Below, piece after piece: positions 949 to 51,472 of a DNA stretch of 64,000 nt; position 1 is the stretch's first letter; each line of letters opens with the position of its first letter. The notes under the pieces were generated by a model. The model made no database searches. It was given only the letters and a program-made list of their open reading frames with translations, and was not told the DNA's origin. The translations under genes were made by a program, and so were the position numbers. The DNA lies in NCBI GenBank assembly GCA_944355355.1, contig CALVQE010000001.1:3175-67174 (forward strand), given 5' to 3'. This DNA comes from an uncultured Bacilli bacterium (GTDB lineage: Bacteria; Bacillota_I; Bacilli_A; RF39; UBA660).

Positions 949-2077
949 GCATCATTTTCTCAAGATTATGAGCTTGCCTAATAGTTTTGTTAGTACTATC
1001 AGCAAAACTCAAAATTTTTCCATTTTTTAAAATTGCATAACAATCAGGACGCATTAATTCGTTATTAATTAAATACGTATTATGGGAAGTTAATATAGAT
1101 TGAAATTCTGTTTTATTATTTATATACTTTAAAATATAAGTAGATAATTCATAATGATAAAAAGCATCAAATTCGTCTAAAAAAACAAAAGAAATGTTAT
1201 CAGTTCTATTCATCCAATAAAAGAATAACCATAAAGAAAGTGTACCTGTTGATGCAACCACATCAAACCTCGCAGTATAATTTTTATATTTTACGCCAAT
1301 AATCTTACGACCGCCTTCACTAATTTCACACAATTTATAATTCTGTCCACAATCCTTTAAAAATTGTTCAAATTTAGATAATAATCGATTATTAATAACA
1401 AAATCATTCATGTCTTCCCTATTAGCCATTACACCCATAAATTCATTAGATCTAAGACTTCTAAACCATAGCATATTATTAACAAACTCCATCAGTAATT
1501 TAACAGCACTATTCTCATTCCAAAATAATGTATTATTATAAATATACTTTAAAACTGACATATCTTTATTACTTCTTTTAGAAATGTCTATTGTTTGAGC
1601 TTCTCCAATATTATTATCAAATTTATTCGTTTCATAATTATATTTAAACAAAATGTTATTATTCTCAATTAACTCTTCAGACAATAATTTTTCCCGAGGA
1701 TCTTTTTTATATGAATAAATTATTTTTTTATCATTTAATAAAAATTCATATTCAAATTCTACAATATTATCAACAAAATTACCATTTACATAATATGCAT
1801 AAATAATATTATCCACACCATAATTATCTGTTAAATGTGTAGTTATATCCATAATTGCAGCGCCTAAATTACTCTTACCAGAATTATTTGGACCATAAAT
1901 CAGCATTTTGTTAATCAATCCATTCTTAATTAATTCTTGATTAAACGCATAGTCTCTTTTTTTTGAAAAATCTAAAGTCAACTTTTCTCTAAAATTTTTA
2001 AAATTTTTAACACTAAATTTCTTCAACATAAGATTCACTCCCAAACTAATTATACCTCCTTTGTATCTTTTTTTCAA
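926..2077 (-). CDS. AAA_15/AAA_21-type (ABC/SMC-like) ATPase, defence-associated
   Basis: Walker A GPNNSGKSNLG and Walker B-like FVFLDEFDAFYH. The SVKNFKNF opening is typical of this family. The likely true start is MLKKFSVKNF at 2029. Confidence 0.75.
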   Translation of the reverse strand: MKKRYKGGIISLGVNLMLKKFSVKNFKNFREKLTLDFSKKRDYAFNQELIKNGLINKMLIYGPNNSGKSNLGAAIMDITTHLTDNYGVDNIIYAYYVNGNFVDNIVEFEYEFLLNDKKIIYSYKKDPREKLLSEELIENNNILFKYNYETNKFDNNIGEAQTIDISKRSNKDMSVLKYIYNNTLFWNENSAVKLLMEFVNNMLWFRSLRSNEFMGVMANREDMNDFVINNRLLSKFEQFLKDCGQNYKLCEISEGGRKIIGVKYKNYTARFDVVASTGTLSLWLFFYWMNRTDNISFVFLDEFDAFYHYELSTYILKYINNKTEFQSILTSHNTYLINNELMRPDCYAILKNGKILSFADSTNKTIRQAHNLEKMMLGGEFEV

Positions 2078-2314
2078 TGAGTGGTGTATTTTTTTTACAC
2101 CTAGTTTATATTATGCAATTATCTAAAAAAAAAATACTATCAAAAGTATTTATAATCAACTTTACCAAAATTTCAAATTAAAACTATTTTTTTATCTTTC
2201 CTGTGAACATCATAATCCACAGATATCTTTCTTCTTAAATTTATTAACTAAAATCTTTTAAACTACACATCTATAACAATTATCTTACTTACGTTATTTT
2301 AAGGGTCTAAAATC

Positions 2315-3385
2315 CTAATTCATTCCCGTAATAAGCATTCGCAGCACAGCCACTAAATTACGCTTAGTCGAACTAGGAACATTTTTAAACTCCTTCATAA
2401 TATTTAATAAAGTAGAAATTTTTAATTCCTTTAACTGCATAATATTTTGAATACTAGTTTTTTCAAAAACAGCAAAAAAAGTTTCCACAAAATTTTTGCG
2501 TTCCTCTTTTGACATTCCTTGTAAATACTCTTCTAAATTCATTTCTAATTTCTTACTTTTCTTTGATAAAATAGACGGAACAAAAAAACCACCGAAACAC
2601 TCCCAAGTAAAAGCATCGTGTTGCAAAACACCCTTTGCACTACTATTGACAACCATATAATCTCTATGCCCCAAAAGCATACCCACAACACTTTCCTTTG
2701 GAACAACCATCTTAAGTTTAGACTCCATCTCTTCATACAAAGAAGACGAAAGAACATCTTTTAAAAACCCAGGGCCATCAAAATTATAAACCTGAACAAC
2801 ACGTTTTTTAAAACTTTCTTTTCCATACATATAAGCATACATAGCCAAATTTCCACCTTTACTATGTCCACCCAAATAAACCTTACGATCAAACAAAGTC
2901 AAAGTAGTATTAAAATAATCAGCAGCATGTATTTGAGACTGAATTGGAAACTTATACATCAATTCAAAATCTTCTTTCCATCCAATCACTTCACTATCAG
3001 TACCTTCAAAAGAAAGATAAGTTATATCCCCAGCGCGAATTGTCAAAGCTCCAAACTGTCCATTTTTATCCGTCTTTATCACAAAATGACCTAATTTACA
3101 ACTAGTATATCTCTTAGAATTAGCAAGTATAACCATAAGCTTATAAGATGATGGAAAAAGCCAATCTTCTTTTTTAAAGTCTTTTTCACTATATTTACTC
3201 AAAAAAAGAACACAAGCCTGTTTTAAAGAAATTGTTTTAAAACGATCACTAGGAACAATATCCTTCAACTTAACATAACTTAAAAGAGCAAAAATAAGTC
3301 CATCAATATCATTAAAATGAACCTCATCAAAAGTTAAATTTCCATAATAATCTAAATAATAAAATACATTCTTCATGACTATCAC
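2315..3385 (-). CDS. DUF2974 (Mbeg1-like) alpha/beta hydrolase
   Basis: 356 aa with nucleophile elbow GHSKGGNLAMYA. Overall length and layout resemble DUF2974 lipase-like proteins. Confidence 0.6.
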   Translation of the reverse strand: MIVMKNVFYYLDYYGNLTFDEVHFNDIDGLIFALLSYVKLKDIVPSDRFKTISLKQACVLFLSKYSEKDFKKEDWLFPSSYKLMVILANSKRYTSCKLGHFVIKTDKNGQFGALTIRAGDITYLSFEGTDSEVIGWKEDFELMYKFPIQSQIHAADYFNTTLTLFDRKVYLGGHSKGGNLAMYAYMYGKESFKKRVVQVYNFDGPGFLKDVLSSSLYEEMESKLKMVVPKESVVGMLLGHRDYMVVNSSAKGVLQHDAFTWECFGGFFVPSILSKKSKKLEMNLEEYLQGMSKEERKNFVETFFAVFEKTSIQNIMQLKELKISTLLNIMKEFKNVPSSTKRNLVAVLRMLITGMN

Positions 3386-3457
3386 CTTTTTATCGACAAA
3401 TATTGAGTTCCAAGTAAAACTCTGATATAATTATTCTATCATAGAAAGTAGGATTAT

Positions 3458-4825
3458 ATGAAAAAAAGACGTAAAATGAAAAAGAAAGTGTTAAAGACCA
3501 TTATCCCTTTACTCATCGTCCTAGTTCTAGTCTTTGCAGCCTTCTTTACTTACAAATTTATTTTTAAAGAAAAAGAAAAACAATTTTTAGAAACAATAGA
3601 AACAGGTGTTTATGCTGACATCACCAAATATGCTATCTATGGCATACACATGAATCTAGAAGGTTCTATCACTTTACCAACAACCCCAAAAGATATTAAA
3701 CTAGTCCTATCTAATGGTCAAACTGAAATTGAAATACCTTGGATAGTAGAAGAACAAGAAACAACATACACATTTAAAACAAGTGAATATATTAATGAGG
3801 GTATCGTTCTAGAAGATCTTCCAAATGAAACTTTATACTTACTAATTAAAACAACTGAGACAAATGAAGAAAATGAAGACATAACTAAATATTATTCCGT
3901 TGAAAATGAAACAGAATATGAAAATCTAGAATATTATACACTAACCAAAAATGATAAAAATAATAAAATTGATATTGAATGGAACACTTACGAAGAATGT
4001 CCAACCCTAAGATTTAAAATCGAAGAAACAACTTTACCTGAAGATGTATACGATATCACTTTAGATCCTGGCCATGATGCATCTGATCCAGGAAAATCAA
4101 TATGTTTAAATGGCAATACAATATATGATCCATCTTCAAGTGGCTATTGTTACAACGGCGGAACACTTTATACTGAAGCCGATTTCAACTTATATGTATC
4201 CCTTGCCTTAAAAGAACAACTAGAACAACGAGGATTCAAAGTTATCATGACTAGAGACAGCGAAGATGACTATGTCAATATATATGAACCTATGGGCAGT
4301 GCCACAATGGCAAACGACACCAAATCAAAACTAAACCTTGCCATTCATCATAACTCATCTGGATATGATGGTGGTATAAGTTATTTAAAAGGCCTAGAAG
4401 TTTATATAGCAAATGATACAAATACCGATCTTGCTGAAATATTAGTAAAAAACATTACAAATACAGCAAACACAACAGCATCCCATAAAGAACTTTACAA
4501 AATTGGAAATGGAATCTACCAAAGATTCTTTACCGAAGAAGAAATAACCAGCAGTGATGTCCAGCCAAGTCGTTACACAACAAATACAAGTTGGTACTAC
4601 AACATGCGAGAAATTGGTGGAATATCAACAAACGCCTCAAATGATGGTCGTTTTGAAGACTACCCAATGAATGAACATTATAATTCAAACAATACAGCCG
4701 AAGCATATCTTCTTGAATTAGGTTACATGGACAACCTAACAGATATAACAAATATGATTAATAACCAAGATAAATATGCCGAGGCAATCGCTGATGCAAT
4801 TCAAGAATATTTAAATCAAGAATGA
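3458..4825 (+). CDS. membrane-anchored N-acetylmuramoyl-L-alanine amidase (Amidase_3)
   Basis: N-terminal basic stretch plus TM helix. LDPGHDASDPG and LAIHHNSS motifs of zinc amidases lie in the C-terminal half. Confidence 0.7.
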   Translation: MKKRRKMKKKVLKTIIPLLIVLVLVFAAFFTYKFIFKEKEKQFLETIETGVYADITKYAIYGIHMNLEGSITLPTTPKDIKLVLSNGQTEIEIPWIVEEQETTYTFKTSEYINEGIVLEDLPNETLYLLIKTTETNEENEDITKYYSVENETEYENLEYYTLTKNDKNNKIDIEWNTYEECPTLRFKIEETTLPEDVYDITLDPGHDASDPGKSICLNGNTIYDPSSSGYCYNGGTLYTEADFNLYVSLALKEQLEQRGFKVIMTRDSEDDYVNIYEPMGSATMANDTKSKLNLAIHHNSSGYDGGISYLKGLEVYIANDTNTDLAEILVKNITNTANTTASHKELYKIGNGIYQRFFTEEEITSSDVQPSRYTTNTSWYYNMREIGGISTNASNDGRFEDYPMNEHYNSNNTAEAYLLELGYMDNLTDITNMINNQDKYAEAIADAIQEYLNQE

Positions 4826-4838
4826 ATTATGTCATAAT

Positions 4839-4862
4839 AAACTCCTAAGAAAGGAGTTTTTT
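4839..4862 (+). terminator. intrinsic terminator after the amidase gene
   Basis: Hairpin AAACTCCT-aagaa-AGGAGTT followed by a T run. Confidence 0.6.
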
Positions 4863-5246
4863 ATGAATAGAAAATACGTACTATATGAAGACTTAAGAAA
4901 AGTAACCAAATCCAAGACCGAAACCCAAATAAAAAATAATAATCAAAATAGCCATTTCACACCTGAAAAAGAAACAGAGTCCTATAAATCTCAAGTTGTC
5001 CTAATAAAAACTCATGACAACCGTTATATAATTTAGAAGAAAGTAATCTCTTAACCTTATTAATAAAACTAAGAACATACATAAACCTACCATTTTTTCC
5101 TGAAGAACAACTTCTCTAACCTATGCCCCTCCAAGAAGGACAAATTTATGTAGACGAGAACACTTTAAATCCATATATATAAATCAATGGCCAACCAGCT
5201 AAAACAAAACTAAATTTAAAACGAGTTCGAAAGCTAAACAACAAAA

Positions 5247-5274: not shown

Positions 5275-6438
5275 TTATTCAGCTTCTTGATCTAGAGTAA
5301 TCGTTAAATCCTTATAATCACTATCACGATATACTCGAACATTCATAGTATCACCAACGCTATGATTATAAAGTAAATAACGTAAATAAGCTAAATCACT
5401 AACGTCCTTACCATCAACCGCAACAATAACATCACCAGTTTTAATACCACCTTTATCAGCAGGTGATGAAGAAGTAACACTCTCAACATAAACACCATAG
5501 TCAATACCTATATTATTTAATGTTGGATAATGATAATACTGAGCTTCTGCCAAATTACGCATACTAATACCTAACTGAGGTCTTTTAATAGTTTCACCCT
5601 TTTCAAGCTTTTCAGCATAATTTAATGCTGTTTCGATTGGAATAGCAAAACCCATCCCTTCAATACTTGCTCCAGAAGAAAGACCACTAGAAGATAACTT
5701 TAAAGATGTAATACCAATTACTTCACCATTAGCATTAGCTAAAGGTCCACCTGAATTACCAGAATTTATCGCGGCATCTGTTTGTAAAACACTCATCATC
5801 ATATCTGCAGTAGAAGAATTACTTGTTGAAACACTAACTAACCGATTCTTACCAGAAACAATTCCTCTTGTTACAGAACCAGAATACGTATCAGAGTTTA
5901 TTGGAGCGCCAACTGTAAACACAGTATCTCCAACTCGAGCTTCTTCACTGCTACCCATCTCAGCAACAGCAAGTACTTCATCAGCACTTAAAGATAACAC
6001 AGCAATATCAGAATATGAATCTTTACCCTCAACCTTTGTCTCTACAATAGAACCATCAGTAAATTCAACATAAATCGCATCACCACTCTCAATAACATGA
6101 TTATTGGTTAAAATATACGCTTTATCTCCATCTTTCTTATAAACAAAACCTGTACCAGTTGCATACAACTGTTGATTAGAATATGTCCGTACAACAACAA
6201 CGGCATCATAAATCTTTTCAACCGCATCAGCAATACCTGTGTCAGTCACTGTTACATTCTTATTAATAACTTCTTCAGTAATTGTTTTTATAAAAGGATC
6301 TGGATAAAAATATATCAATAAATATAATCCACAAGCTCCTAGAAAAAACATTGCTATCGCAAGCACAATATAACGAACACAAAAATTTTTAGGCTTTACA
6401 TTTGTCTCATTATTTTCCATTTTATTTTTTCCTTTCAT
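5275..6438 (-). CDS. htrA: HtrA/DegP-family serine protease with PDZ domain
   Basis: N-terminal TM anchor, trypsin-fold motifs including GNSGGPL, and a C-terminal PDZ-like segment (GDVIVAVDG). Confidence 0.85.
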   Translation of the reverse strand: MKGKNKMENNETNVKPKNFCVRYIVLAIAMFFLGACGLYLLIYFYPDPFIKTITEEVINKNVTVTDTGIADAVEKIYDAVVVVRTYSNQQLYATGTGFVYKKDGDKAYILTNNHVIESGDAIYVEFTDGSIVETKVEGKDSYSDIAVLSLSADEVLAVAEMGSSEEARVGDTVFTVGAPINSDTYSGSVTRGIVSGKNRLVSVSTSNSSTADMMMSVLQTDAAINSGNSGGPLANANGEVIGITSLKLSSSGLSSGASIEGMGFAIPIETALNYAEKLEKGETIKRPQLGISMRNLAEAQYYHYPTLNNIGIDYGVYVESVTSSSPADKGGIKTGDVIVAVDGKDVSDLAYLRYLLYNHSVGDTMNVRVYRDSDYKDLTITLDQEAE

Positions 6439-7364
6439 AACTTCACCATCTCTTCATAATTAATCGGAAATCCCATTCTGTCTAAAACTTTTTCAACAGA
6501 AATCGTCTTTAAATGACCTGACAATACTTGAATCTCATATTCTACTTCACTCATTAACAAGAAAAAATCATCTTTTCGTAACAATTGCTTCAAAATAATA
6601 ATAATCGCGAACAAATCATTTTTTCCATAAATGTATTCATCATTCATTTTAGGAATGTTTAATAATTGATGATATTTAGTATCCTCAATATCCCGTTGAG
6701 CACGATGATCATACAAAACATCTTCATGAGCACACAAATTACGAAAATTAGCTAAAATCGGCAAATAAACAATCAATTGATCCACTGAAACGCCAAAATC
6801 TTGAGCAATTTCAGCTTGATTTTCTGGTTTTAATATTTGATACATCTCACTAACAATACCAAAAGATAATATTTTCACAACTATCCATAAAGGAATATAC
6901 CCATATTTATCAATATAATGCATCGTAGCTTGATGTTGTCCACCATTAATCCGTATTTGACGTTTCATTTTTCGTAACAAATCATCAACTTGTTTCTTTC
7001 GCTTACGATCACTAGTAAAGTTCTTAGGATTCAAATACTCCTCTTCTCGAATACCATAATGTTTCGATAAATTATATGCCGTTATACTCTTAATATTATT
7101 TTCAATAATAAGTAAATTTTTAAAAATAATATTTCGTAAATGACGATCAAATTGAAACATCGAATAAACTTCTTCAAAAGTAGTTCCCGAAAGAAACTTT
7201 TTATTACTTGAGCTTTCCATAAAAAGAAGACGATAACCATTAATAAAGAAATAATTTTCTCTCAATAGAATATCTTTCGTTTCTTCAATGTCAGATATCA
7301 CAAGCCCTTTACTTTGCATAATGTGAACTTGTTCATCGAGCGTTTTAAATACCTTCTGCATCAC
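6435..7364 (-). CDS. Abi_2 family (AbiD/AbiF-like) abortive-infection-type protein
   Basis: N-terminus KTLDEQVHIMQSKGLVI...NYFFINGYRL and the FRNLCAHEDVLYD motif are typical of Abi_2. The stop overlaps the htrA start (ATGA). Confidence 0.7.
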   Translation of the reverse strand: MMQKVFKTLDEQVHIMQSKGLVISDIEETKDILLRENYFFINGYRLLFMESSSNKKFLSGTTFEEVYSMFQFDRHLRNIIFKNLLIIENNIKSITAYNLSKHYGIREEEYLNPKNFTSDRKRKKQVDDLLRKMKRQIRINGGQHQATMHYIDKYGYIPLWIVVKILSFGIVSEMYQILKPENQAEIAQDFGVSVDQLIVYLPILANFRNLCAHEDVLYDHRAQRDIEDTKYHQLLNIPKMNDEYIYGKNDLFAIIIILKQLLRKDDFFLLMSEVEYEIQVLSGHLKTISVEKVLDRMGFPINYEEMVKL

Positions 7365-7493: not shown

Positions 7494-8459
7494 ATGCCAT
7501 CAATCGTAACTCATCATTTATTTGCTGAAGAAGTATATAACCACTTATCAACAAAAACGCAAAACAAACTAAAAAATGCATATCCCATATATCAAATTTT
7601 TGCCCAAAGCTTTGATAATCTTTTTTATTACAAATTCTTCACCCCATGGCAAGGCAAACAAATTAGAGCATTAGGAAATATTGCTCAAAAAAACAAAACA
7701 GATACATATTTTAAAAACCTTATTAACTTCATAAAACAAAATAATCTTATAGATAACCCCGACTTATTAGCCTACTTATATGGAAGCATCAACCATTATG
7801 TCTTAGACTACAACTGCCATCCCTTTGTATTCTACTACACTGGAGATCCCAAACTAAACAAAAAATATCGAGGTCTTCACGAAAAATTAGAAGTAAATAT
7901 GGATGCTTATATGTTAAAAAAACTACGAGGGAAAGAATTAAAAAAAGAAAAACTCGCTGATACTTTATTACCTATCATACATTTTAATTCTTACTTAAAA
8001 CAGGGAATTGATTATACATTTGAAAGTACTTTTAATATCCAAAATATGGGAAAAATTTATGAAAAAAGCTATCATACTGGTCACACAATTATAAAATACT
8101 TTGTTACAGATCATTTAGGAATTAAAAAACAAATTTATGGTATAGTAGATTTTTTTACTCCCCTATCCCATCGTCGTTATAAAAACTTAAGCTTTCATGT
8201 TACCAAAATCATTCCTGAATATACTAATGAACAACATGAAACATGGTTTAATCCTTGGAGTCTAGAACCATCAAACTTATCATTTTATGAACTATTTGAA
8301 AAATCTCAAACAATAGCAGTCAATTTAATTGAATCAATTGAAGCCTATTTCCAAAACCAAATTAATGAACAAGAACTAACCAATATTTTAAAAGATTATT
8401 CCTATACAACCGGCCTATCTTGGCGCATAGACACCCCTATTAAAAAACTAAAAAGATAA
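7494..8459 (+). CDS. zinc-dependent phospholipase C-like family protein
   Basis: MPSIVTHHLFAEEV opening and scattered His/Asp residues resemble cytoplasmic PLC-like zinc proteins of Firmicutes. Weak call. Confidence 0.4.
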   Translation: MPSIVTHHLFAEEVYNHLSTKTQNKLKNAYPIYQIFAQSFDNLFYYKFFTPWQGKQIRALGNIAQKNKTDTYFKNLINFIKQNNLIDNPDLLAYLYGSINHYVLDYNCHPFVFYYTGDPKLNKKYRGLHEKLEVNMDAYMLKKLRGKELKKEKLADTLLPIIHFNSYLKQGIDYTFESTFNIQNMGKIYEKSYHTGHTIIKYFVTDHLGIKKQIYGIVDFFTPLSHRRYKNLSFHVTKIIPEYTNEQHETWFNPWSLEPSNLSFYELFEKSQTIAVNLIESIEAYFQNQINEQELTNILKDYSYTTGLSWRIDTPIKKLKR

Positions 8460-9104
8460 CTACAAAAAACTTTCAACTAAATAAGTAGAAAACAAATCAA
8501 TATAATTATCGTCTAATAACCTTTTTCGTTCAGTCGAATTAGATAAAAAACCACATTCTACAAGAACACCAGGTATTTTCAATTTCGAATACATATAAAT
8601 AGTATTGGAAATTTTTTTTATTTCCCTATCCTTCTCTAATTTACTATTTAAATAATTTTGAATTTTTAAAGCAAGAGGTTGATTATCTTCTAACACATTA
8701 GAATAAAAAACCTGTGGTCCATCATAACTACTATCATCAAGATAATTAAGATGTATAGAAATATAATAATCTGCTTGACTATTATTAATCAACATAATAC
8801 GATGATCAAAATCACTTTTCTTACGATACACAGCTTTAGGTGTTCCCAAATCATAATCGCCTTCTCGGGTTAAGATCACCTTAGCTCCCTTTTCCATTAA
8901 CTTTTCCTTGACCTTTAGCACAATGGCTAAATTAATATCTTTTTCATAAACATCACCAACTACACTACCCGGATCAACTCCACCATGACCAGCATCCAAA
9001 ACAAAAACTTTTCCATCTAAAGGACCACTAGCCCGAACAAGATTAAATTGAAACACAAGAAAAAACAGAACAAACAAGAAAAAGCAAAAATAGTTTTTTT
9101 TCAT
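8460..9104 (-). CDS. cwlD: germination-specific N-acetylmuramoyl-L-alanine amidase
   Basis: Signal/TM segment, LDAGHGGVDPG and SIHLN motifs, about 210 aa. In Bacillus-type gene order cwlD lies near rpsI. Confidence 0.75.
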   Translation of the reverse strand: MKKNYFCFFLFVLFFLVFQFNLVRASGPLDGKVFVLDAGHGGVDPGSVVGDVYEKDINLAIVLKVKEKLMEKGAKVILTREGDYDLGTPKAVYRKKSDFDHRIMLINNSQADYYISIHLNYLDDSSYDGPQVFYSNVLEDNQPLALKIQNYLNSKLEKDREIKKISNTIYMYSKLKIPGVLVECGFLSNSTERKRLLDDNYIDLFSTYLVESFL

Positions 9105-9132
9105 ACCAAATTATATTCATAAAATATTATAA

Positions 9133-10242
9133 TCATTCTTTGATTTCTAATTTTTCTAAAAAACGCTCATAGTAATGTAGATTACTAATCATAAAATAGC
9201 CCTTATAACTTACTTTAGTAGCCTCATATTTATCTGAAGATTGTTTTTGTAATTTTCTTAATTTTCTTAAAATTTTACTCCGATTTCTACTAGTCGGAAA
9301 AATAAACAACCTTCTATTCTTAAGCACATAACGATAGCCCAAAAAATTAATCCCATCTTTTAAATTACGTATTTGTGTTTTTCGATTCAATTGCAACTTT
9401 AATTCTTTCTGCAAATAATTCTCAATCTTTTGCCAACAAACTTTTAAATATTCCTTATCGTTAGAAAAAAGTAAAAAATCATCCATATAACGAATATATT
9501 GTTTGATTCCTAAATCTTCCTTAATAAAATGGTCTAAGCCATTTAAATACAACAAAGCAAAAATTTGACTCGACATATTCCCAATTGGTAACCCCTTTCC
9601 CTTATGATACATTGGAATTCTTTCTAACTCTTCTTTCAAAGAATTATCCAAAACATTTAACTTTTCCTGGTCAACTAACTTAGAAATAATTGAATTAATG
9701 TGTATATCATCTGTACTAGAAACAATGTTACAAAGCAAACTATACAAATCATTATCAATAGGAAATTTTCTAACCATACTTAATAAAATATCATGATCAA
9801 TATTATAAAAATATTTAGAAATATCACACTTCAAAACGTACACGTAATCACCTTTCTTTTTTAAAAAATTAACATAATATTTAAAATAATCAATTGCAGA
9901 ACGTGATCCTTTTTCTTTTCTCGTTGCCACATTAGAAGAAATAAGCATCGGAAAAATAATAGGCTGTAAAACATATTTACTAACTAAATGATTAACAATT
10001 TTATCGGATAAACCCTCACTCATAATAAGACGATACTTTGGCTCATGAATTAAAAACAAATTATACTTACCATGGTTATATGTTCTCATTCTAAGTACCA
10101 TTTCAATGCTAAACAAATTACTAAAGTAAAACATCTCAAAGCGAAATAATTTTTTACGATGTTTAGTATTTTTCTTTATAATTCGATAAGCATCTTGAAG
10201 ATGATCAAAAGTAACAACATCATCATACTTTAGCATTTTCAT
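9133..10242 (-). CDS. DGR reverse transcriptase
   Basis: YMDD box (IRYMDDFLLF) and the DGR-typical LPIGNMSSQ motif. It is 369 aa and overlaps avd by 20 nt. Confidence 0.9.
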   Translation of the reverse strand: MKMLKYDDVVTFDHLQDAYRIIKKNTKHRKKLFRFEMFYFSNLFSIEMVLRMRTYNHGKYNLFLIHEPKYRLIMSEGLSDKIVNHLVSKYVLQPIIFPMLISSNVATRKEKGSRSAIDYFKYYVNFLKKKGDYVYVLKCDISKYFYNIDHDILLSMVRKFPIDNDLYSLLCNIVSSTDDIHINSIISKLVDQEKLNVLDNSLKEELERIPMYHKGKGLPIGNMSSQIFALLYLNGLDHFIKEDLGIKQYIRYMDDFLLFSNDKEYLKVCWQKIENYLQKELKLQLNRKTQIRNLKDGINFLGYRYVLKNRRLFIFPTSRNRSKILRKLRKLQKQSSDKYEATKVSYKGYFMISNLHYYERFLEKLEIKE

Positions 10243-10582
10243 TACGAATCACCCCATAAATCATCTTGCGAATTTCTACCAAAAATCGCCCAACAACATC
10301 TGACTGTCGTTTACTAATATACTTTCTTTCATAACACAAGATAACATAATAATTAACCATAGATAAATGAATTAAAATTTCTTTCAAATACTTTTCCTTA
10401 ATACGATACACATCTTGTATCTCATAAGAAAAAAGAAGCTCAATAAGTAAAAACATAGAATTTTCTAAACGATTTCTCAAAACCGTTTCTTTCTTTGGAA
10501 AATTAACAATCAATCGATCCAAATAACTATTTAACCGTTTCACCTTATTTAAAATATTAAAATTAGTATTCACTTTAAACAT
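10223..10582 (-). CDS. avd: Avd-like four-helix-bundle accessory variability determinant
   Basis: 119-aa basic helical protein immediately upstream of and overlapping the RT, downstream of TR. Confidence 0.7.
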   Translation of the reverse strand: MFKVNTNFNILNKVKRLNSYLDRLIVNFPKKETVLRNRLENSMFLLIELLFSYEIQDVYRIKEKYLKEILIHLSMVNYYVILCYERKYISKRQSDVVGRFLVEIRKMIYGVIRNENAKV

Positions 10583-10862
10583 CCTTTCTTTCCTCTAAAA
10601 GTAAACAAAATAAAAAAGAATTATATTATCTCAAAAACACGTGACTGCATTGAAATAATATAATTCGTGTTACAAAATATGGTAAACTAGTCAATACGTA
10701 TTTCTACCATGACATCCATACGAATATTTTAGGTATCATACCAGGGAATAATCCTGTCTCCAATCTAATCGATTATAAGTACAACTTATTACTTCCTCAC
10801 ATAAATAGCCTTAACCATTTATACCCAGTGCATTAGAACAATTTCTAATCGTAGTAGGAGTC

Positions 10863-10970
10863 TGGGCCGCACACCGTTCAAGTTATTCACATTGTCATTG
10901 TTGTTGCCATTACCATCAGAATTGACGTTACGCACGTTTGCATTGCCATTATTGAAGTTACCAGGCGACA
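10863..10970 (-). repeat. DGR template repeat (TR)
   Basis: 108 nt aligning without gaps to 11150-11257. The coding-strand sequence is rich in AAC/AAT codons (SPGNFNNGNANVRNVNSDGNGNNNDNVNNLNGVRP). Confidence 0.9.
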
Positions 10971-11014
10971 CAAAACACAGCACCACTTAATTCGGATTAC
11001 ACCCAAAAAATCGG

Positions 11015-11042
11015 CTTGCAAAATGATGAGTCATTTTGCAAG
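11015..11042 (-). terminator. perfect 12-bp stem, 4-nt loop hairpin after the DGR target gene
   Basis: CTTGCAAAATGA-tgag-TCATTTTGCAAG. On the minus strand it is followed by CCGATTTTTT. Confidence 0.6.
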
Positions 11043-11078
11043 GAAATCTCTCGTAGCAGCTCACAAGGTTGGCTTTAA

Positions 11079-12731
11079 TCAGCCAACCATATATGGATCT
11101 GCAGCCGTCCCTGAACCTACTTTCAGGCTATCAGGTATCAGATTGAGAGTGGGCCGCACACCGAGCAAGCTACTCACACCGCCATAGACGTTGCCACTAC
11201 CACCAGAATAGACGTAACGCACGCCGGCACCGCCATCATTGAAGCCACCAGGCGACATGGTCCAATAAGAATCTCCTGTATATAAATAGTAATCATAATT
11301 TTCTGCACCGAATCCGCCAGCTAAATAGACTTCATCCGTTGTAATAAGACCAATTGGATACGTTAAAACTCCATTACCTATCACTTCATCACTTACTGTA
11401 AACCGATCATTTTGCTCTGCACATTGCAAATTTGGATAAGTAAGTAAATTAGCATAATCTTCTCCCATACTAGCTGCCAGTGGATCACCATACCAGCGAT
11501 ATGCCGTCCGTTCTTTTCCATAGCCTAAATTACTATATTGTTCTCCTGCATAATCCTGAGCCGTATCATGTAGTAAACTACGATCATTACAAAATAAGTT
11601 GTCTACAATATAACTTTCATAGGGCGTCCCTGAAAACACATTCTCATACCAATCATCTAAATACGCTTTAATTGTACTATCATTGGTGTTTGCATGTGTC
11701 TCGGCATAACTACTCGATCCTGGTGTTCCGTACATATATCCGACGTAAGCATTGTCATTGTAGGTTGAATTATATCGACTATCTCCAATACTTCTATAAT
11801 TATCATCTCTGGCCACTTCGCCATTAGCATGAGCACTGGTGCCATCATAGATGAGTCTTATCGAGCCATCTCCATTGATTCTTATAATTCTCCAATACAT
11901 GTCTTGGCCTTGTTCGTTTTTACCAAATTTTACATAGTTATTCGTAACATTTCCTCTAAAATAATAGGAATTCCCATAATTGTCTGGCGCACTACAAACA
12001 TAACTGTTTGTTCCTTCTATGTTACTTACAACAACACTGCCATCTTCTTGAACTGTTGGACATGCTCCTTCATCGCTCATTGCTTCAGCAATAATTTGAC
12101 AATTGGTACTATCTTCTCCATATCTTCCGACACAAATTTCGTAATCACTTGCTGTCTCGGTGATATAACTTGCCACAACAGTGATTTTACTTTGGAAAGT
12201 TTTGTTCATAGAATCAGTATTATCAGCAGTAACATCTTCATCTATCCATAGTCTTAAATCATAGGTTACACTTCCATTTGGATCTAAATAACCTGTCATA
12301 AGACGATAGGATGTTTGGGCCTCGGATAAAGTTGGAGTAACTGTACTATAAGAACTTAATAAATCAGGGGCCGCATTACCAAACATGACACTGATGTAAT
12401 TTGCATTGGTTAAAGTTGAGGTATTTAATACTTCTAAATTCACTTGATAAGAAGCAGAAGAACTACACTGATTGGTTATAGTAAACGTATAAGGCGAGCT
12501 TTTCATACCTTCCTCATCCATAATAGGATACGCTCTATTTAAAGTGATCGCATCACTATTTTCTTGGAAAGTAATATCAAAGCAATCGGTATTTACAATA
12601 TTTGTATTTGACTGTTGAAAATTCAAAAGCCAAGCAGCAAAAGTAACTCCCACTATAAGGCAAACAATCAACAGGATACCACCAATAAGATAAACCATCT
12701 TAATATTATTTTTTCTTGTTAATGCATTCAT
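11079..12731 (-). CDS. DGR target protein, membrane-anchored, C-terminal variable (C-type-lectin-fold-like) region
   Basis: N-terminal TM helix. The VR encodes SPGGFNDGGAGVRYVYSGGSGNVYGGVSSLLGVRPT about 23 aa from the C-terminus. The YWTMSP...GVRP frame is typical of DGR variable domains. Confidence 0.85.
   Translation of the reverse strand: MNALTRKNNIKMVYLIGGILLIVCLIVGVTFAAWLLNFQQSNTNIVNTDCFDITFQENSDAITLNRAYPIMDEEGMKSSPYTFTITNQCSSSASYQVNLEVLNTSTLTNANYISVMFGNAAPDLLSSYSTVTPTLSEAQTSYRLMTGYLDPNGSVTYDLRLWIDEDVTADNTDSMNKTFQSKITVVASYITETASDYEICVGRYGEDSTNCQIIAEAMSDEGACPTVQEDGSVVVSNIEGTNSYVCSAPDNYGNSYYFRGNVTNNYVKFGKNEQGQDMYWRIIRINGDGSIRLIYDGTSAHANGEVARDDNYRSIGDSRYNSTYNDNAYVGYMYGTPGSSSYAETHANTNDSTIKAYLDDWYENVFSGTPYESYIVDNLFCNDRSLLHDTAQDYAGEQYSNLGYGKERTAYRWYGDPLAASMGEDYANLLTYPNLQCAEQNDRFTVSDEVIGNGVLTYPIGLITTDEVYLAGGFGAENYDYYLYTGDSYWTMSPGGFNDGGAGVRYVYSGGSGNVYGGVSSLLGVRPTLNLIPDSLKVGSGTAADPYMVG
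11150..11257 (-). repeat. DGR variable repeat (VR)
   Basis: By hand alignment, 22 of 108 positions differ from TR. Every difference falls at a TR T on the + strand, which is A on the coding strand. The invariant GC-rich end GTGTGCGGCCCA is IMH-like. Confidence 0.9.
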
Positions 12732-12853
12732 TTTTTACACCATCCTACACTTCTATTCTTCTTACGATAATACAAGTATAGCACAGAAAGTGTTTGTTTA
12801 TCAAGAATTAAAAAATAGTTTTATATACTTAAAGTTTAAAAAACAATCAAACA

Positions 12854-12917
12854 AAAACCCCATAAACACAAAGCTTATGAGGGTAAAAGAAATATTTGTA
12901 TTAACGTTTACTAAATT
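12854..12917. repeat. prophage attL (imperfect direct repeat of 44185-44249)
   Basis: Shares perfect blocks AAAACCCCATAAACAC (16 nt) and TTAACGTTTACTAAATT (17 nt, the last codons and stop of rpsI) with the right end. Confidence 0.75.
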
Positions 12918-12953
12918 AGCGTTCCTGATTTTATCGGGAAAAAACAGGTGTAT

Positions 12954-12974
12954 GTGGGTTACTTGTGGGTTACA
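12954..12974 (+). promoter_or_regulatory. putative integrase arm-type sites (left arm)
   Basis: GTGGGTTACTT GTGGGTTAC direct repeats. The same motif is repeated three times at 44112-44142. Confidence 0.5.
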
Positions 12975-13033
12975 CATCAAGTTTTAAGGATAATCTCAAT
13001 AATAAATGAGATCATCCTTTTTTATAATATAAA

Positions 13034-13894
13034 TCATCGTTTTTGCAATGAACTAGCTTTGTAGAAACCGGTTGTACCAGAACTATTTCCAACTTGGTAA
13101 GGATATTCTCTATCCCCGTAAATCTTCAAGATTTCTCTTTCCCAACCGATACCATATGCTGTAACTCCTTTTCCAGAGGCTTGCGAATTACCAGTTCCAG
13201 TAATTTTAACTTTATCGCCAACTTTTAACTCAGTTGAGTTATTATTTGAACTACTAGATGTCGCGTTTGGGATTGTTAATGTTTGACTAGGATAGATTGT
13301 ATAATTACTATCTAATCCGTTTGCATTTTTAATTAAATCCCATTCTGTTTTCGTTGATTGACTATAATATTTTCTACAAATCGCTGCAACAGTATCCCCT
13401 GATTGAACTGTATAAGTAGTTTTTTCGGATGTTGATGGTGTTGACGGTTCACTATTTGTACTTGGTAAATTTGCATCAATATAACTTGTCGGGTCAATTC
13501 TTGTATCATTTTGATTACGAACCTCAAAATGCAAATGAGCACCTGTGGAATGCCCTGTGGCTCCCATATAGCCAATTACTTGACCTTGCGAAACTCTATC
13601 TCCAACATTTACTGTAACACTACCATATTTCATGTGAGCATATAATGTGTAATAACCATTATCATGTTTAATTTTTACATAGTTTCCGTAACTGTTTCCA
13701 GTTTTATCTTGCGTCGCATAGTCTTTTCTTACTCCAACTACGGTGCCATCGCTATGTGCTACGATATAATCTAATGAATATCCTGTTCCAACCAAGTCTA
13801 TACCATTATGATAACCAGCACGATATTTTTGCGTTACAACATTACCTTTACTTTTAAATACTCTACTCATCTTATACCTCCTCATATTCTTCAA
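13034..13894 (-). CDS. endolysin: M23 peptidase plus LysM plus SH3-like C-terminus
   Basis: HxxxD/HLHFEV M23 motifs (GYHNGIDL, GAHLHFEV) and LysM (YTVQSGDTVAAICRKYY). It is the last gene of the prophage next to the holin. Confidence 0.8.
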   Translation of the reverse strand: MKNMRRYKMSRVFKSKGNVVTQKYRAGYHNGIDLVGTGYSLDYIVAHSDGTVVGVRKDYATQDKTGNSYGNYVKIKHDNGYYTLYAHMKYGSVTVNVGDRVSQGQVIGYMGATGHSTGAHLHFEVRNQNDTRIDPTSYIDANLPSTNSEPSTPSTSEKTTYTVQSGDTVAAICRKYYSQSTKTEWDLIKNANGLDSNYTIYPSQTLTIPNATSSSSNNNSTELKVGDKVKITGTGNSQASGKGVTAYGIGWEREILKIYGDREYPYQVGNSSGTTGFYKASSLQKR

Positions 13895-14278: not shown

Positions 14279-14522
14279 GACTTATTGATTTTATTGCCCA
14301 GAACTGAGCTTCTTCTAATTTGGTAATTGCAAGTGAAGTTTCTCTACTATTTTTACATACCTGTTCAACGAAATCGTATACTCCCGAGAACAACTCGCGA
14401 ATTTCGTCTATTCTATGTTGTTGTTCTACTGAAACTTCGTTCATTTTTGCTTTCTCATTCATTTCTACATATGCCTTTCTACTTATTTTTAGCTTGAATA
14501 GCATCGTATCCGCCACCAACAC
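14250..14522 (-). CDS. hypothetical phage protein
   Basis: 90-aa helical ORF between the holin and the endolysin. Confidence 0.45.
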   Translation of the reverse strand: MLVADTMLFKLKISRKAYVEMNEKAKMNEVSVEQQHRIDEIRELFSGVYDFVEQVCKNSRETSLAITKLEEAQFWAIKSISREKEENKDV

Positions 14523-14733
14523 CTAGGCTAATAGCTAGACACGTTACAATTGCTACTGGAATACTAGCAAATAAATCAAAATATATAGCAACACAAGCCG
14601 ATATCAAACCAATCACTATATTTTGAATAGGTATCCACTTAGAGGGAACTACACTATCTTTTAAAACTGTTCCAAGTATTGCTGTAACAATTGCTTGTAC
14701 TAATGCGAAGATTAGTTCAATTGTAATATCCAT
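14479..14733 (-). CDS. phage holin
   Basis: 84 aa with 2-3 TM helices and a charged C-terminus, upstream of the endolysin. Confidence 0.7.
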   Translation of the reverse strand: MDITIELIFALVQAIVTAILGTVLKDSVVPSKWIPIQNIVIGLISACVAIYFDLFASIPVAIVTCLAISLGVGGGYDAIQAKNK

Positions 14734-21531: not shown

Positions 21532-24038
21532 GAGTAAATCACCCTTTCAATATCATCAACAACTAATTCACCGAACTTATCGCCATCAATTTTAAAAGCC
21601 ATGCCCTCTAAAGCTTCTTGAAGTGCATTAATTAAATAAGCTGTATTAGAAGAAAAAGCATTAGAATTGCTATTGTCTAAATTTTTTGAAACATTGATAT
21701 TTGAAGCAATATCAAAATCAGTCGGTAAAGCCTTTTGAATGTCTTTGGTAACAGAAGTCATTTCATTTTCAAATCCTACTCCAACACCTTTTGCTAAATT
21801 AGATCCGATCTCATCTCGAAATAAGGTGGATGGGCTATGAATACCAAAGAAGCCTTTAATTCCGTCTAAAATAGCACTACCAAAGCCTTTAATTTTATCA
21901 AGAACCCAGTCTTTAGCATTGTTAATTCCGTTCCACAATCCCTGAACCACATTTTTTCCTACTTCTGTTATTTTTGATAGTCCTCCAAGAATACCGTCTT
22001 TAATTTTATTTAACAAGTCACCTCCTAAACTGATTAATTTCGGAAATAAACTTGTTACTCCAGAAATAAATGAAGAAATAATCTGTGGAACTTTTGCAAC
22101 TAGTTGTGGAATTGCTTGCACAATACCAACAGCTAATTTTAATGTGATTTCAACACCTGCTTCTATAATTTTAGGAAGATTATTCGTTAAAGCTTCAATT
22201 ACTTTATCAATAATTTCTGGTATTTTATCAATTAAATCAGGAAGAGCTTCAATTAGTCCCTCAGCTAAACCAAGTAATAATTGAATACCAGCATCTACCA
22301 ATAGATCAATATTATCAAGTAGCGTTGTAACCATAGTTGTTACAGCATTTACCATTTCTGGAATAAGAGTCGGCAACGACTGTGCAATACCTTGAACCAG
22401 AGAAACAATTAATTGAATACCCATCTGAAGTATTTGAGGTAAATTCTGAGTTAACGTAGAAATCAGCATATTAACGATCTGCATTACTGCTGTCATAATT
22501 GCTGGCATATTCGCTTGTAAGCCACTTATTAATGAAGTTAAGATATTACTTCCAGTTGTAAGAAACTGTGGTAAATAATTCATGATATTTTCTAACAAAG
22601 TCGGAAAAACTTCCATGATACTATTCACTACTTGTTCTACAACGGGCATAACATTTTCTACGACCGTCGTGGCACTATCGACAACATTGCTCACTAAATC
22701 ACTCATATTTGCATTTCCATCAGCTAAACCGGTCATGAAATTTGTCCATGCTGACTTCATGGAACTTATAGAACCACTAATAGTAGAACTTGCTTCTTTA
22801 GCTGTTGTACCAGTAATTCCCATTTCAGTTTGAATAACATGAATTGCTTGATATACGTCATTTAAATTTGATATGTCATAATCTATACCACTTATTGCAC
22901 TTGCATCGGCTAATAGTCGTTCCATTTCAGTTTTGGTTCCACCATATCCAAGTTTTAAGTTGTCTAGCATTGTATAATTTTGCTTAGCAAATCCTTGATA
23001 AGCATTTTGGATCATTTCCATTGAGGTACCCATCTTATTTGCGTTGTCCGACATATCTGTAATTGCCATATCAGCAACCTCTGCCGACTTAGCTGTATCA
23101 CCATTTAAACTCTGTAGTAAACTTGCTGAAAAAGAAGTTACAGTTGTCATATATTCATTTGCCGACATTCCTGCTGTTTTATAAGCATTATTAGCATAAT
23201 TTTCTACAACTCCAGCACTTTCTTCGAATAAGGTTTCAACACCGCCAATTAATTGTTCATATTCAGCATAACTAGATACTGCTGTCTTACCAACATCGAG
23301 TAAAGCTGTTCCAACAGTCTTCATTGCTGAAGCTAAACCTTTAATTCCTGCAATAATTCCCTCGCTAATCAAATTACCTTTAATTAAATCGCCTAGAGAT
23401 AACGTACTTTTGCCAGCATTATCAGCTTCTGTTGCAAATTCTTTAATTGATTTTGAATTGTCCTCGAAAGTATTCTTTGTCTTTGATAAAATAGCATTGT
23501 TAGAATTAATCTGCGTAGATAAGTTACTACATTCTGTTTTAGCATTGTTCATTTTAGTTGTATAATCATTTATTTTTCGACTATTTGCGTCATAAGCTGA
23601 CTCTGCTTTAGAAAGTTCTTTTTCTAAGTTTGCTACTACCTGTTGTTGTTTAGAAATTTCAGTACTCGATGAAGTAGTACTACTCTTCATTTTATCTAAT
23701 GTGCTTTTTTCACTTTCTAAAGAACTTTTTAATTTATCAATTTCTGTTTTATTTTTAGTTTGTTGATCCGTAAAGTCTTTGATTGCATCAGTACATAAAC
23801 TCACAATTTTTTGTTCTTCTTGTAGCTTTTTATTTAAAGCGTCGTTTTGAGTTCTTAAATCGCCAATTTTTGTGCCATTGTTTGTAAACTCTGCTGACGC
23901 AAGTTTTAATTCACTTGATACCGACTTTAAATTACTAGTAATATTTTTTAAAGCACTAGTATATGCACTTTCACCAGTTAATTTTACACTACCTCCAAAA
24001 GAACCTGCCATAAGTCTCCCTCCTTTCCTTACAACCAT
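21528..24038 (-). CDS. tape measure protein
   Basis: 836 aa with a coiled-coil N-terminus and hydrophobic Gly/Ala/Ile-rich repeats, located downstream of the tail chaperone genes. Confidence 0.85.
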   Translation of the reverse strand: MVVRKGGRLMAGSFGGSVKLTGESAYTSALKNITSNLKSVSSELKLASAEFTNNGTKIGDLRTQNDALNKKLQEEQKIVSLCTDAIKDFTDQQTKNKTEIDKLKSSLESEKSTLDKMKSSTTSSSTEISKQQQVVANLEKELSKAESAYDANSRKINDYTTKMNNAKTECSNLSTQINSNNAILSKTKNTFEDNSKSIKEFATEADNAGKSTLSLGDLIKGNLISEGIIAGIKGLASAMKTVGTALLDVGKTAVSSYAEYEQLIGGVETLFEESAGVVENYANNAYKTAGMSANEYMTTVTSFSASLLQSLNGDTAKSAEVADMAITDMSDNANKMGTSMEMIQNAYQGFAKQNYTMLDNLKLGYGGTKTEMERLLADASAISGIDYDISNLNDVYQAIHVIQTEMGITGTTAKEASSTISGSISSMKSAWTNFMTGLADGNANMSDLVSNVVDSATTVVENVMPVVEQVVNSIMEVFPTLLENIMNYLPQFLTTGSNILTSLISGLQANMPAIMTAVMQIVNMLISTLTQNLPQILQMGIQLIVSLVQGIAQSLPTLIPEMVNAVTTMVTTLLDNIDLLVDAGIQLLLGLAEGLIEALPDLIDKIPEIIDKVIEALTNNLPKIIEAGVEITLKLAVGIVQAIPQLVAKVPQIISSFISGVTSLFPKLISLGGDLLNKIKDGILGGLSKITEVGKNVVQGLWNGINNAKDWVLDKIKGFGSAILDGIKGFFGIHSPSTLFRDEIGSNLAKGVGVGFENEMTSVTKDIQKALPTDFDIASNINVSKNLDNSNSNAFSSNTAYLINALQEALEGMAFKIDGDKFGELVVDDIERVIYS

Positions 24039-36913: not shown

Positions 36914-37135
36914 TCAAGAATTTTGTTCCTTTGAATTATTTTGATCTTCTTTTTCTTCTGATAAATTAATCTGCTTCACAACATCTTTTAATTCTTTAAT
37001 TTCTTTTTGCAACTCTTTGTTAAATAAAGTAGAGGGACTGTGAATACCAAAGAAACCTTGAATTTTATCAAGAACCCAGTCTTTAGCATTGTTAATTCTG
37101 TTCCACAATTCCTGAACCACAATTTTACCTTTCAT
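36914..37135 (-). CDS. chimeric 73-aa ORF built from tape-measure and head-module gene fragments
   Basis: Residues 5-40 match tape-measure residues around VVQGLWNGINNAKDWVLDKIKGF...GFFGIHSPSTLF. The C-terminus matches LQKENEELKAVVEQINLSEENED of ORF 26822-27190. At nucleotide level, 37065-37121 matches 21895-21951 at 55 of 57 positions. Confidence 0.5.
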   Translation of the reverse strand: MKGKIVVQELWNRINNAKDWVLDKIQGFFGIHSPSTLFNKELQKEIKELKDVVKQINLSEEKEDQNNSKEQNS

Positions 37136-42185: not shown

Positions 42186-42851
42186 ATGAGTTACTTCAAT
42201 AATAATCTTCCATATATCAGAAAACAAAAAGGGATCTCTCAAAAAGAATTAGCTAAAAAAATTGGCGTTGATCAATCTACAATCTCACTATGGGAAAAAG
42301 GAATGGATACGACAGTTGAAAATGTAATAAAAGTAGCGGAAGCACTCGATGTTCCCGTTCCCGACTTCATAGGCTCAGATTTAAGATTTGATAATGCCGA
42401 ATTAATCGACTTAAATGTAGAGAGAGTGAAAGTGCCAGTTTTAGGAGTGATAAAAGCAGGTACACCAATTGAAGCACAAGAAGATATTTTAGATTATGTA
42501 GAAATACCAAAAGAATGGATAAGGCAAAGTAAAAAATATTATGGTTTAAAAATTAGTGGTAATAGCATGAGCCCGAAGTATATGCCAAATGATACCGTTA
42601 TTTTTGAAGAAACAAATGATTTTCAATATGCCAATAATAAAGATTGCTGCGTGATGGTAAATGGTGACGATGCAACTTTCAAGGTTCTTAAATTAAAAGA
42701 AGACGGTATTAGATTAATACCACTAAATATTGAAAATGATGATGGATATCTTCCTACGTCATATACTAAAGAAGAAATAATAAACTTGCCAGTCAAAGTA
42801 ATTGGTATCGCTAGAGTAAAAATTTCCAGCATAAGTTATATGGAAGAATAA
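42186..42851 (+). CDS. CI/LexA-like repressor (XRE HTH plus S24 peptidase)
   Basis: N-terminal HTH (KGISQKELAKKIGVDQSTISLWE) and a C-terminal S24 domain with the GNSMSP serine motif and a downstream Lys. Confidence 0.85.
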   Translation: MSYFNNNLPYIRKQKGISQKELAKKIGVDQSTISLWEKGMDTTVENVIKVAEALDVPVPDFIGSDLRFDNAELIDLNVERVKVPVLGVIKAGTPIEAQEDILDYVEIPKEWIRQSKKYYGLKISGNSMSPKYMPNDTVIFEETNDFQYANNKDCCVMVNGDDATFKVLKLKEDGIRLIPLNIENDDGYLPTSYTKEEIINLPVKVIGIARVKISSISYMEE

Positions 42852-44087: not shown

Positions 44088-44111
44088 GTTCTTTTTTATT
44101 GTTCTAATTTT

Positions 44112-44142
44112 GTGGGTTACTTGTGGGTTACTTGTAGGTTAC
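44112..44142 (+). promoter_or_regulatory. putative integrase arm-type sites (right arm)
   Basis: GTGGGTTACTT GTGGGTTACTT GTAGGTTAC, three direct copies between int and attR. Confidence 0.5.
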
Positions 44143-44184: not shown

Positions 44185-44249
44185 AAAACCCCATAAACAC
44201 TGAGTTTATGGGGTATAAAAGAAAACACTAGGTTAACGTTTACTAAATT
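44185..44249. repeat. prophage attR overlapping the rpsI 3' end
   Basis: Imperfect direct repeat of 12854-12917. The 17-nt block covers the rpsI codons QFSKR and the stop. Confidence 0.75.
44189..44213 (-). terminator. rpsI terminator
   Basis: CCCCATAAAC-5 nt-GTTTATGGGG perfect 10-bp stem, followed on the minus strand by TTTTC. Confidence 0.7.
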
Positions 44250-51104: not shown

Positions 51105-51153
51105 CTATCAACTAACCACATCATATCATAAAATACCCGCTTTGTAAACTTTC

Positions 51154-51468: not shown

Positions 51469-51472
51469 TCTT

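Follow-up and report, generated by a model that had tools for sequence, protein, structure and literature searches.

A complete chromosomal diversity-generating retroelement with a putatively secreted or surface-exposed target in an uncultured gut Bacilli bacterium

We analysed a 64,000-nucleotide stretch of contig CALVQE010000001.1 from an uncultured low-GC gut Bacilli bacterium (the window) and find that it very likely carries a complete, chromosomal diversity-generating retroelement (DGR) that diversifies a secreted or surface protein. All parts of the element lie on the minus strand, in the order target gene with its variable region (VR), terminator, template repeat (TR), covarying structured RNA, avd and reverse transcriptase (RT) gene, with about 500 nt of non-coding sequence between the 550-aa target open reading frame (ORF) and the 119-aa avd ORF. 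A preliminary description of this DNA had already called the element complete and given the order target/VR, TR, avd and RT with the gene coordinates. These hold on the minus strand, and a conserved DGR RNA scaffold can now be added to the RT, Avd, TR and VR. That the target is displayed on the surface and binds a ligand is what we infer. The parts of the cassette are as follows.

9133–10242, minus strand: RT gene, 369 aa, with IGNMSSQ (IGxxxSQ) and catalytic YMDD motifs
10223–10582, minus strand: avd, 119 aa, with a 20-nt overlap with the RT start
10700–10882, minus strand: structured RNA scaffold directly 3′ of the TR and including its last 20 nt, found by covariance model
10863–10970, minus strand: TR, 108 nt, with 34 adenines and 15 AAY codons
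11015–11042, minus strand: terminator-like hairpin (putative function), 12-bp stem and T-run, between the target stop codon and the TR
11079–12731, minus strand: target gene, 550 aa, carrying the VR in its C-terminal domain
11129–11163, minus strand: initiation of mutagenic homing (IMH)-like 3′ boundary of the VR, 14-mer CGGTGTGCGGCCCA followed by the 21-nt flank CTCTCAATCTGATACCTGATA
11150–11257, minus strand: VR, target residues 492–528
12775–12804, minus strand: promoter-like site upstream of the target, TTGATA, 18-nt spacer, TG-TATACT

The relation between the two repeats carries the identification. By ungapped comparison (offset 287) the TR and VR are gap-free near-repeats over 108 nt, with 22 mismatches that all fall at plus-strand T, corresponding to coding-strand A (15 T>C, 5 T>A and 2 T>G on the plus strand). 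The count made by hand in the preliminary description was thus exact, and careful alignment reveals no mismatch at a non-adenine position. Substitutions affect 22 of the 34 TR adenines, and the confinement of all mismatches to adenines has a hypergeometric P of 1.1e-14. As described before, the TR is rich in AAY codons, 15 in number, and its translation (...SPGNFNNGNANVRNVNSDGNGNNNDNVNNLNGVRP) is as given then. All but one of the 34 adenines occupy codon positions 1 or 2. The VR lies close to the end of the 550-residue target. Elsewhere in the 64-kb window we find no further copies of the TR or VR or of their GC-rich end. The same architecture, with adenine-biased TR/VR pairs, recurs in at least 38 of 81 related loci.

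The enzyme and its accessory protein are those of a DGR. The RT matches RVT_1 (E 6e-18) and aligns over its full length with Brt from Bordetella phage BPP-1 (BLASTP, E 3e-40, 358 columns), IGNMSSQ falling opposite IGSLTSQ, YMDD opposite YMDD and GLPIGNMSSQIFA opposite GIPIGSLTSQLFA, with an insertion of about 37 aa (residues ~169–205) relative to Brt. Its best match among Protein Data Bank (PDB) sequences is 8ub7, a 328-aa RT (E 8e-34) that we take from its equal length to be the Bordetella bRT, its name being absent from the match table. Group II intron enzymes match at about 1e-10 and retron-type enzymes at 4e-06 or weaker, so similarity searches favour Brt over either of these classes. The closest phage RTs are those of BalMu-1, nd12 (37% identity) and FP_Lagaffe. 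The BalMu-1 enzyme presumably belongs to a DGR. Both nd12 and FP_Lagaffe carry DGRs (PMC10743442). The 119-aa product of the overlapping gene matches NCBIfam NF033474 (DivGenRetAVD; E 6e-11, model positions 2–101 of 104) and Pfam bAvd PF22296 (E 8.5e-9), and resembles Bordetella Bbp7/Avd weakly in pairwise comparison (E 0.004). The identical Avd of one conspecific locus (L081) was pre-annotated with PF22296, and that of another (L100) is 100% identical to the window's. The YMDD and IGxxxSQ motifs and the Avd-like gene overlapping the RT are therefore as previously described.

Between the TR and avd lies a spacer of about 280 nt that contains conserved blocks in relatives and a hairpin, predicted by RNAalifold, with 6 of its 10 pairs preserved by changes on both sides. 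We built a covariance model on 14 loci; it finds exactly one copy in the window (10700–10882, 148 bits, E 3e-30) and 82 copies among the related loci, every one of which is on the RT strand and starts at the 3′ end of a TR. In the model-fitted alignment 92.7% of cells are paired, compared to 35–48% in slid controls. Of 21 pairs, 20 have compensatory changes on both sides, and covariation is scored at 0.445, the controls reaching 0.05–0.09. A single-sequence fold of the TR-plus-spacer RNA was no better than shuffled sequences (z −0.9), so that the structure is detectable only by comparative analysis, and an Rfam scan of 8400–13100 at E≤1 returned no family and left the scaffold unmatched. Putative Avd-binding stem-loops just downstream of the TR have been described in 207 of 278 Avd-type DGRs (bioRxiv 10.1101/2023.10.23.563531). 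Since the scaffold matches published work on the Bordetella DGR RNA, it is an expected functional part of a DGR and presumably corresponds to the Avd/RT-binding and priming portion, like the Bordetella Sp region.

The boundary of the VR also has a counterpart in known elements. Within the window the GC-rich 14-mer (11150–11163 at the VR) occurs only at the ends of the TR and VR. The 21-nt flank (11129–11149) follows the VR and is absent 3′ of the TR, which continues instead into GACTCCTACTACG.... We propose, by comparison with Bordetella, that the 14-mer and the VR-specific flank form an IMH-like arrangement that would give the exchange its direction.

On this reading the TR would be transcribed together with the structured RNA directly 3′ of it. 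As in Bordetella, a complex of RT and Avd would bind the TR-scaffold RNA, prime itself and copy the TR into cDNA, misincorporating opposite the 34 template adenines. The cDNA would then take the VR's place at the 3′ end of the target gene, the 14-mer and the 21-nt flank setting the direction as IMH and IMH* do in the Bordetella element. The outcome would be randomisation of about 17 mostly AAY-templated codons in a C-terminal, DUF6273-like binding domain of C-type lectin (CLec) type.

The preliminary description had called the element apparently active, and comparison with conspecific strains bears this out as far as the recent past is concerned. The TR of the conspecific strain L081 (identical in locus L001) differs from that of the window at four positions: 10 (G>T), 87 (A>C), 88 (A>T) and 93 (A>T). 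At position 10, which is not an adenine in either strain, each VR has the base of its own TR. At positions 87, 88 and 93 the L081 VR copies the L081 TR, the window's TR having mutable adenines there. Within L081 all 20 TR/VR mismatches are at adenines. Because the VRs follow their own TRs at non-adenine sites, information has been copied from TR to VR since the strains diverged. The VRs of the two strains differ at 23 of 108 positions (21%), compared to 37 differences in about 3.4 kb (~1%) outside the TR and VR (9133–12699) and 7 differences in the 1,110 nt of the RT gene; the RT and avd are 99–100% conserved between strains. As judged from these strain comparisons, turnover of the VR since divergence is shown. 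Among near-identical target homologues from other samples there are at least five VR peptides, with invariant flanks (25 residues before and 23 after). We had taken all VR variants in the 90% protein clusters to be strain variants and gave this up, because paralogous remote VRs occur within one genome (see below). In one cluster member (P0124, in the 90% cluster of P0004) the VR reads straight into the downstream frame of the TR (...GNGNNNDNVNNLNGVRPRLLLRLEIVLMHW...), as either a VR/TR assembly chimera or a real VR–TR recombination or deletion. Such collapses may explain why contigs often break in target genes, as in L001.

What does the element diversify? Homologues of the target number more than 7,900, nearly all from metagenome-assembled genomes (MAGs) of uncultured gut Bacilli, Tenericutes and Firmicutes, and many stand alone amid housekeeping genes, without RT or phage genes nearby; one complete relative (L038) has a chromosome of 1.52 Mb. 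Pfam and NCBIfam gave no match for the window's target, nor did NCBIfam, including its SipW-signal model, for the siblings. An AlphaFold2 model of the target (mean predicted local distance difference test score, pLDDT, 84) shows the following parts, given by target residue.

~10–36: N-terminal hydrophobic helix
~50–190: beta-sandwich
196–217: two helices
243–295: small beta domain
317–550: alpha/beta C-terminal domain with the VR

At the C-terminal end, target homologues give borderline Pfam DUF6273 matches at the VR, structural matches of the target in a viral library are DUF6273 proteins (probability 0.99), and the DUF6273 tentaclin of phage nd12 has a VR scaffold with which the family profile can be aligned (hhalign probability 89%, E 2e-6). 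No similarity was found by hhalign between the family and the nd12 'structural protein' at 4184–5074. DUF6273 has been described as a CLec-like, recurrent DGR target domain (PMC10743442, PMC11792537). The C-type lectin fold expected in the preliminary description is therefore supported indirectly, by the homology between the VR scaffold and DUF6273 targets, and not by Foldseek, which returned no CLec match in the PDB for the full-length model.

At the other end, the N-terminal module aligns with the N-termini of two siblings, P0088 and P0105, over 169 columns (hhalign probability 91%, E 1e-6), across the hydrophobic leader and an A-x-A-x-[FW] motif. For Peptidase_M73, the camelysin/TasA family, both siblings exceed the Pfam cut-off. 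Among PDB folds the full target model is matched best by 7ueg, an archaeal bundling pilin of TasA-like type, with a template modelling (TM) score of only 0.32. The N-terminal helix may thus be a cleaved TasA/camelysin (SipW-type) leader. Of the earlier proposal of a membrane-anchored surface protein, the N-terminal hydrophobic helix stands and the anchoring is uncertain, because the N-terminus resembles leaders that may be cleaved. We infer that the C-terminal module of about 330 residues is a binding head carried on differing fibre-forming or export modules, which would make the target secreted or surface-exposed. Given the resemblance of the N-terminal module to TasA/camelysin-type fibre proteins, the diversified domain is most likely, by analogy, a ligand-binding head. 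Our literature search found nothing relevant joining DGRs with TasA or with RF39/Tenericutes.

We also searched species-representative genomes with the invariant ends of the repeats for remote VRs. A conspecific MAG, CALVUT01, whose RT is 99% identical, holds the known TR and VR and, on other contigs, three more VRs.

L097, 5258–5365: remote VR
L098, 883–990: remote VR
L099, 7835–7942: remote VR

All three are at the 3′ ends of target paralogues and carry the 14-mer and, identically, the 21-nt flank. Compared with the MAG's TR, the L098 VR has 15 of 15 mismatches at adenines. The L099 VR has 20 of 23, the three exceptions being exactly the sites where the TRs of the two strains differ, which suggests that the TR itself changed after this VR was last rewritten. 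For the L097 VR, 19 of 21 mismatches with the window's TR are at adenines. Judging by these matches, this species probably has four or more targets for one TR.

We next consider where the element sits. To the right of the cassette and on the same strand is a complete siphovirus-type prophage of about 31 kb (12901–44249), inserted at the 3′ end of rpsI and absent from the conspecific strain L081. Its attachment (att) sites share a 17-bp core, TTAACGTTTACTAAATT, which occurs in the window only at the following two positions.

12901–12917, plus strand: attL core, duplicating the 3′ end of rpsI and lying ~170 nt from where the target starts
44233–44249, plus strand: attR core, the 3′ end of rpsI (44233–44649, minus strand)

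Arm-type repeats of 11 bp (TTGTGGGTTAC) lie just inside both prophage ends, those of the right end at 44110–44142, and an integrase of only 253 aa (43326–44087) lies just inside attR. Similar terminators adjoin both att cores, the original rpsI terminator being at 12858–12882 and its replacement being supplied by the phage. The prophage encodes an M23/LysM endolysin (13034–13894), a holin (14479–14733), tail genes and a CI-like repressor (42186–42851). The target start at 12731 lies outside attL. In L081, which is prophage-free and has a 96%-identical target, the gene order is rplM-rpsI-target-avd-RT-cwlD-PLC-Abi_2-HtrA. Since this strain keeps the DGR at the same locus, the element is resident in the chromosome, and the L081 gene order indicates that in the window's strain the phage entered between rpsI and the DGR. 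The DGR thus sits between rpsI and a cwlD-like amidase gene, in the chromosome and not in the prophage, and its placement just outside a prophage att site, as first described, is correct.

The proximity of this prophage nevertheless raises the possibility that the DGR is phage-derived, either as part of the adjacent prophage or as a remnant of an earlier one at the rpsI att site, with the target acting as a phage receptor-binding protein. The cassette is only about 300 nt from the endolysin/holin module, an Abi_2 gene is nearby, and gut Firmicutes phages commonly have related RTs and VR domains of DUF6273 type. We consider this origin very improbable. The DGR is outside the att core and the arm-type repeats, there is no third att copy to its left that would mark a second remnant, and no further att cores or arm repeats occur in the window. 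The prophage contains no VR-like sequence, and the strain that lacks it retains the DGR between rpsI and cwlD. The features expected of a prophage-encoded DGR, a position inside the prophage boundaries and a tail or receptor-binding target, are not seen; the target has instead an N-terminal secretion/anchor helix with a TasA/camelysin-like module, and its homologues reside among housekeeping genes with no phage genes close by.

A different possibility is that the cassette is a fossil that diversified its target in the past and is now inactive in this strain, for example because it is silent behind the terminator. Loci L001 and L081, from independent samples, have identical VRs, which means that turnover is not necessarily rapid. 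A strong intrinsic terminator (11042–11015) separates the target gene from the TR, and no σ70-like promoter was predicted between this terminator and the TR, nor any promoter for the TR-avd-RT unit, although the scan could miss one; the TR RNA may therefore come from read-through or from a promoter that the scan missed. The promoter-like site upstream of the target matches at 10 of 12 positions with an extended −10, as a consensus match only. We nevertheless regard a fossil as unlikely, since the RT, avd, TR, RNA scaffold and VR are intact and in frame, the RT and avd are kept nearly unchanged between strains, TR changes at non-adenine sites have passed into the cognate VR after the strains separated, and there are several VR variants with invariant flanks.

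The identical VRs and the lack of a predicted promoter behind a terminator are among a number of results that weigh against our preferred reading, that of a complete and recently active DGR acting on a surface protein. Both Avd scores are under the curated cut-offs (42.5 against 80 bits for NF033474, 36.3 against 40 for PF22296). A hairpin is seen downstream of the window's VR (z −3.1 over a 106-nt stretch, −0.1 over the 75 nt after the VR), yet a Bordetella-type hairpin at this place is not conserved in 28 relatives (mean z −0.4), and we dropped the idea of a conserved hairpin or cruciform there. Foldseek of the isolated C-terminal model (pLDDT 67) against the PDB gave nothing significant, a CD23 lectin at E 6 being noise; the family profile has no match among PDB sequences, and hhalign detects no similarity between the family and Bordetella Mtd. 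Paralogues rather than strains may account for some of the variant VRs in the protein clusters, and the remote VRs are those of a conspecific genome, not the window's own. Recent activity of the element is supported indirectly, by evolutionary comparison, and activity at the present day would be an extrapolation from it.

Three groups of neighbouring features were also recorded. Within the prophage there are exact direct repeats (21891–21928 and 37061–37098, also 26916/36951 and 26965/37000), one of 38 bp with nearby ones of 23, 18 and 17 bp. They link the tape-measure/head region with the replication region and may be duplicated gene fragments. To the left of the DGR are defence-type genes, namely Abi_2 (6435–7364) and an AAA_21/AbiEii-like ATPase (926–2077), together with an Mbeg1-like protein (2315–3385); all three are also present in the prophage-free strain. 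Further away, on the minus strand at 50553–63948, is a type VII secretion system (T7SS)-like locus with two WXG100 proteins (61128–61722), an FtsK/SpoIIIE (EssC-like) ATPase (62041–63948) and a DUF4176 protein (51154–51468). Its 2,852-aa ORF (52151–60709) contains no Pfam domain and may encode a giant T7SS substrate or toxin.

Beside the remote target on L097, at 1950–5173, are three genes that touch on how such targets are displayed. One is a 174-aa ORF that is camelysin/BsaA-like through weak matches only. The product of another, 203 aa long, has a prepilin N-methylation motif (PF07963, scoring above the cut-off) and weakly matches ComGE. The third encodes a 529-aa paralogue of the target in which the same C-terminal module is joined to a GFxxxE-like leader. 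Such a neighbourhood hints at display of the diversified module on structures of pilus or fibre type.

In relatives, and not in the window, we observed tandem AAY-rich TR cassettes upstream of avd and the RT, up to eight per locus and spaced by about 334 nt. They were located as matches to the RNA-scaffold model.

L008, 7008–9614: TR array
L009, 8009–9615: TR array
L011, 8330–9614: TR array
L004, L005, L017, L035 and L068: further TR arrays

The cassettes of an array hold distinct TRs with identical 5′ (TTGTCTCCGAG) and 3′ (AATGGTGTTCGCGCG) ends and a scaffold copy each. At each locus the neighbouring VR can be matched, with mismatches at adenines only, to just one cassette. This cassette is not the same in the syntenic loci L008 and L009, the L008 VR coming from cassette 3 of its array and the L009 VR from a cassette identical to L008 cassette 5. 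The cassette ends do not occur elsewhere in the same MAGs. From these matches it is possible that several alternative templates feed one VR in relatives, by template switching. We found no description of a multi-TR DGR in the literature searched. If correct, template switching on top of adenine mutagenesis would be a new layer of DGR diversification, in the wider family and not in the window.

A broader picture, which we offer tentatively and think rather doubtful as a whole, is that of a lineage-wide system in small-genome gut Bacilli. Here one TR would rewrite the ligand-binding heads of several scattered paralogous adhesins associated with fibres or pili, with TasA/camelysin-like or prepilin-like N-termini, and the multi-TR arrays of relatives would add template switching.

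Returning to the chromosomal DGR of the window, it provides a clean, fully dissected cellular example from a poorly known lineage of uncultured gut Bacilli, and the exact coordinates of its RT, Avd, TR, RNA scaffold, IMH-like element and VR could be used directly for reconstitution. The pair of strains with and without the prophage shows that the DGR belongs to the host and documents the flow of information from TR to VR. The target family is large and modular with only some members coupled to a DGR, which suggests an important, rapidly adapting surface-recognition system.

Compared to the prototype, the DGR of Bordetella phage BPP-1 (mtd-avd-TR-brt), the window's element shares adenine-specific TR-to-VR mismatches, full-length homology of the RT with alignment of both the IGxxxSQ and the YMDD motif, an Avd-type accessory gene, a VR located at the target's 3′ end with a GC-rich element after it, and a structured RNA 3′ of the TR. 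It differs in being chromosomal rather than phage-borne, in its gene order (target-TR-avd-RT, against target-avd-TR-RT in BPP-1), in a target that is unrelated to Mtd and has a secretion/anchor leader, in the RT insertion of about 37 aa, and in probably having several remote targets.

Chromosomal DGRs that act on surface proteins are already known; what is added here is an under-studied lineage and an undescribed target architecture. In Legionella pneumophila, the LdtA lipoproteins are the targets of a chromosomal DGR acting on surface proteins. In Treponema denticola, a chromosomal DGR acts on the surface protein TvpA (PMC4891356). Like these, the window's DGR is cellular and acts on the C-terminal domain of a protein that is secreted or surface-exposed, possibly with several targets per TR. 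Its host, by contrast, is a small-genome, spore-forming gut member of the Bacilli, its target has a TasA/camelysin-like leader instead of a lipobox or a twin-arginine translocation (TAT) signal, and its VR scaffold is DUF6273-like, unlike the formylglycine-generating enzyme (FGE)-sulfatase-type CLec of Legionella and Treponema.

The VR scaffold is shared instead with DGRs of gut Firmicutes phages that have DUF6273 targets, such as the nd4 and nd12 tentaclins (PMC10743442) and those of Faecalibacterium prophages (PMC11792537), with which it is homologous (...YW...VRYVYSGG...GVRPxxNLK). There the targets are phage tail or decoration proteins, whereas the window's target is encoded in the chromosome, has an export helix at its N-terminus and belongs to a large family of cellular paralogues. 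In Bacteroides, a chromosomal DGR diversifies a surface protein of type V pili (bioRxiv 10.1101/2024.11.15.621889). Both that system and the one described here are chromosomal DGRs of gut commensals whose target could plausibly form the adhesive portion of a surface fibre. The fibre systems are unrelated, however, since the N-termini here are TasA/camelysin-like or type IV pilin-like, features that may point to a link of the window's DGR to fibres.

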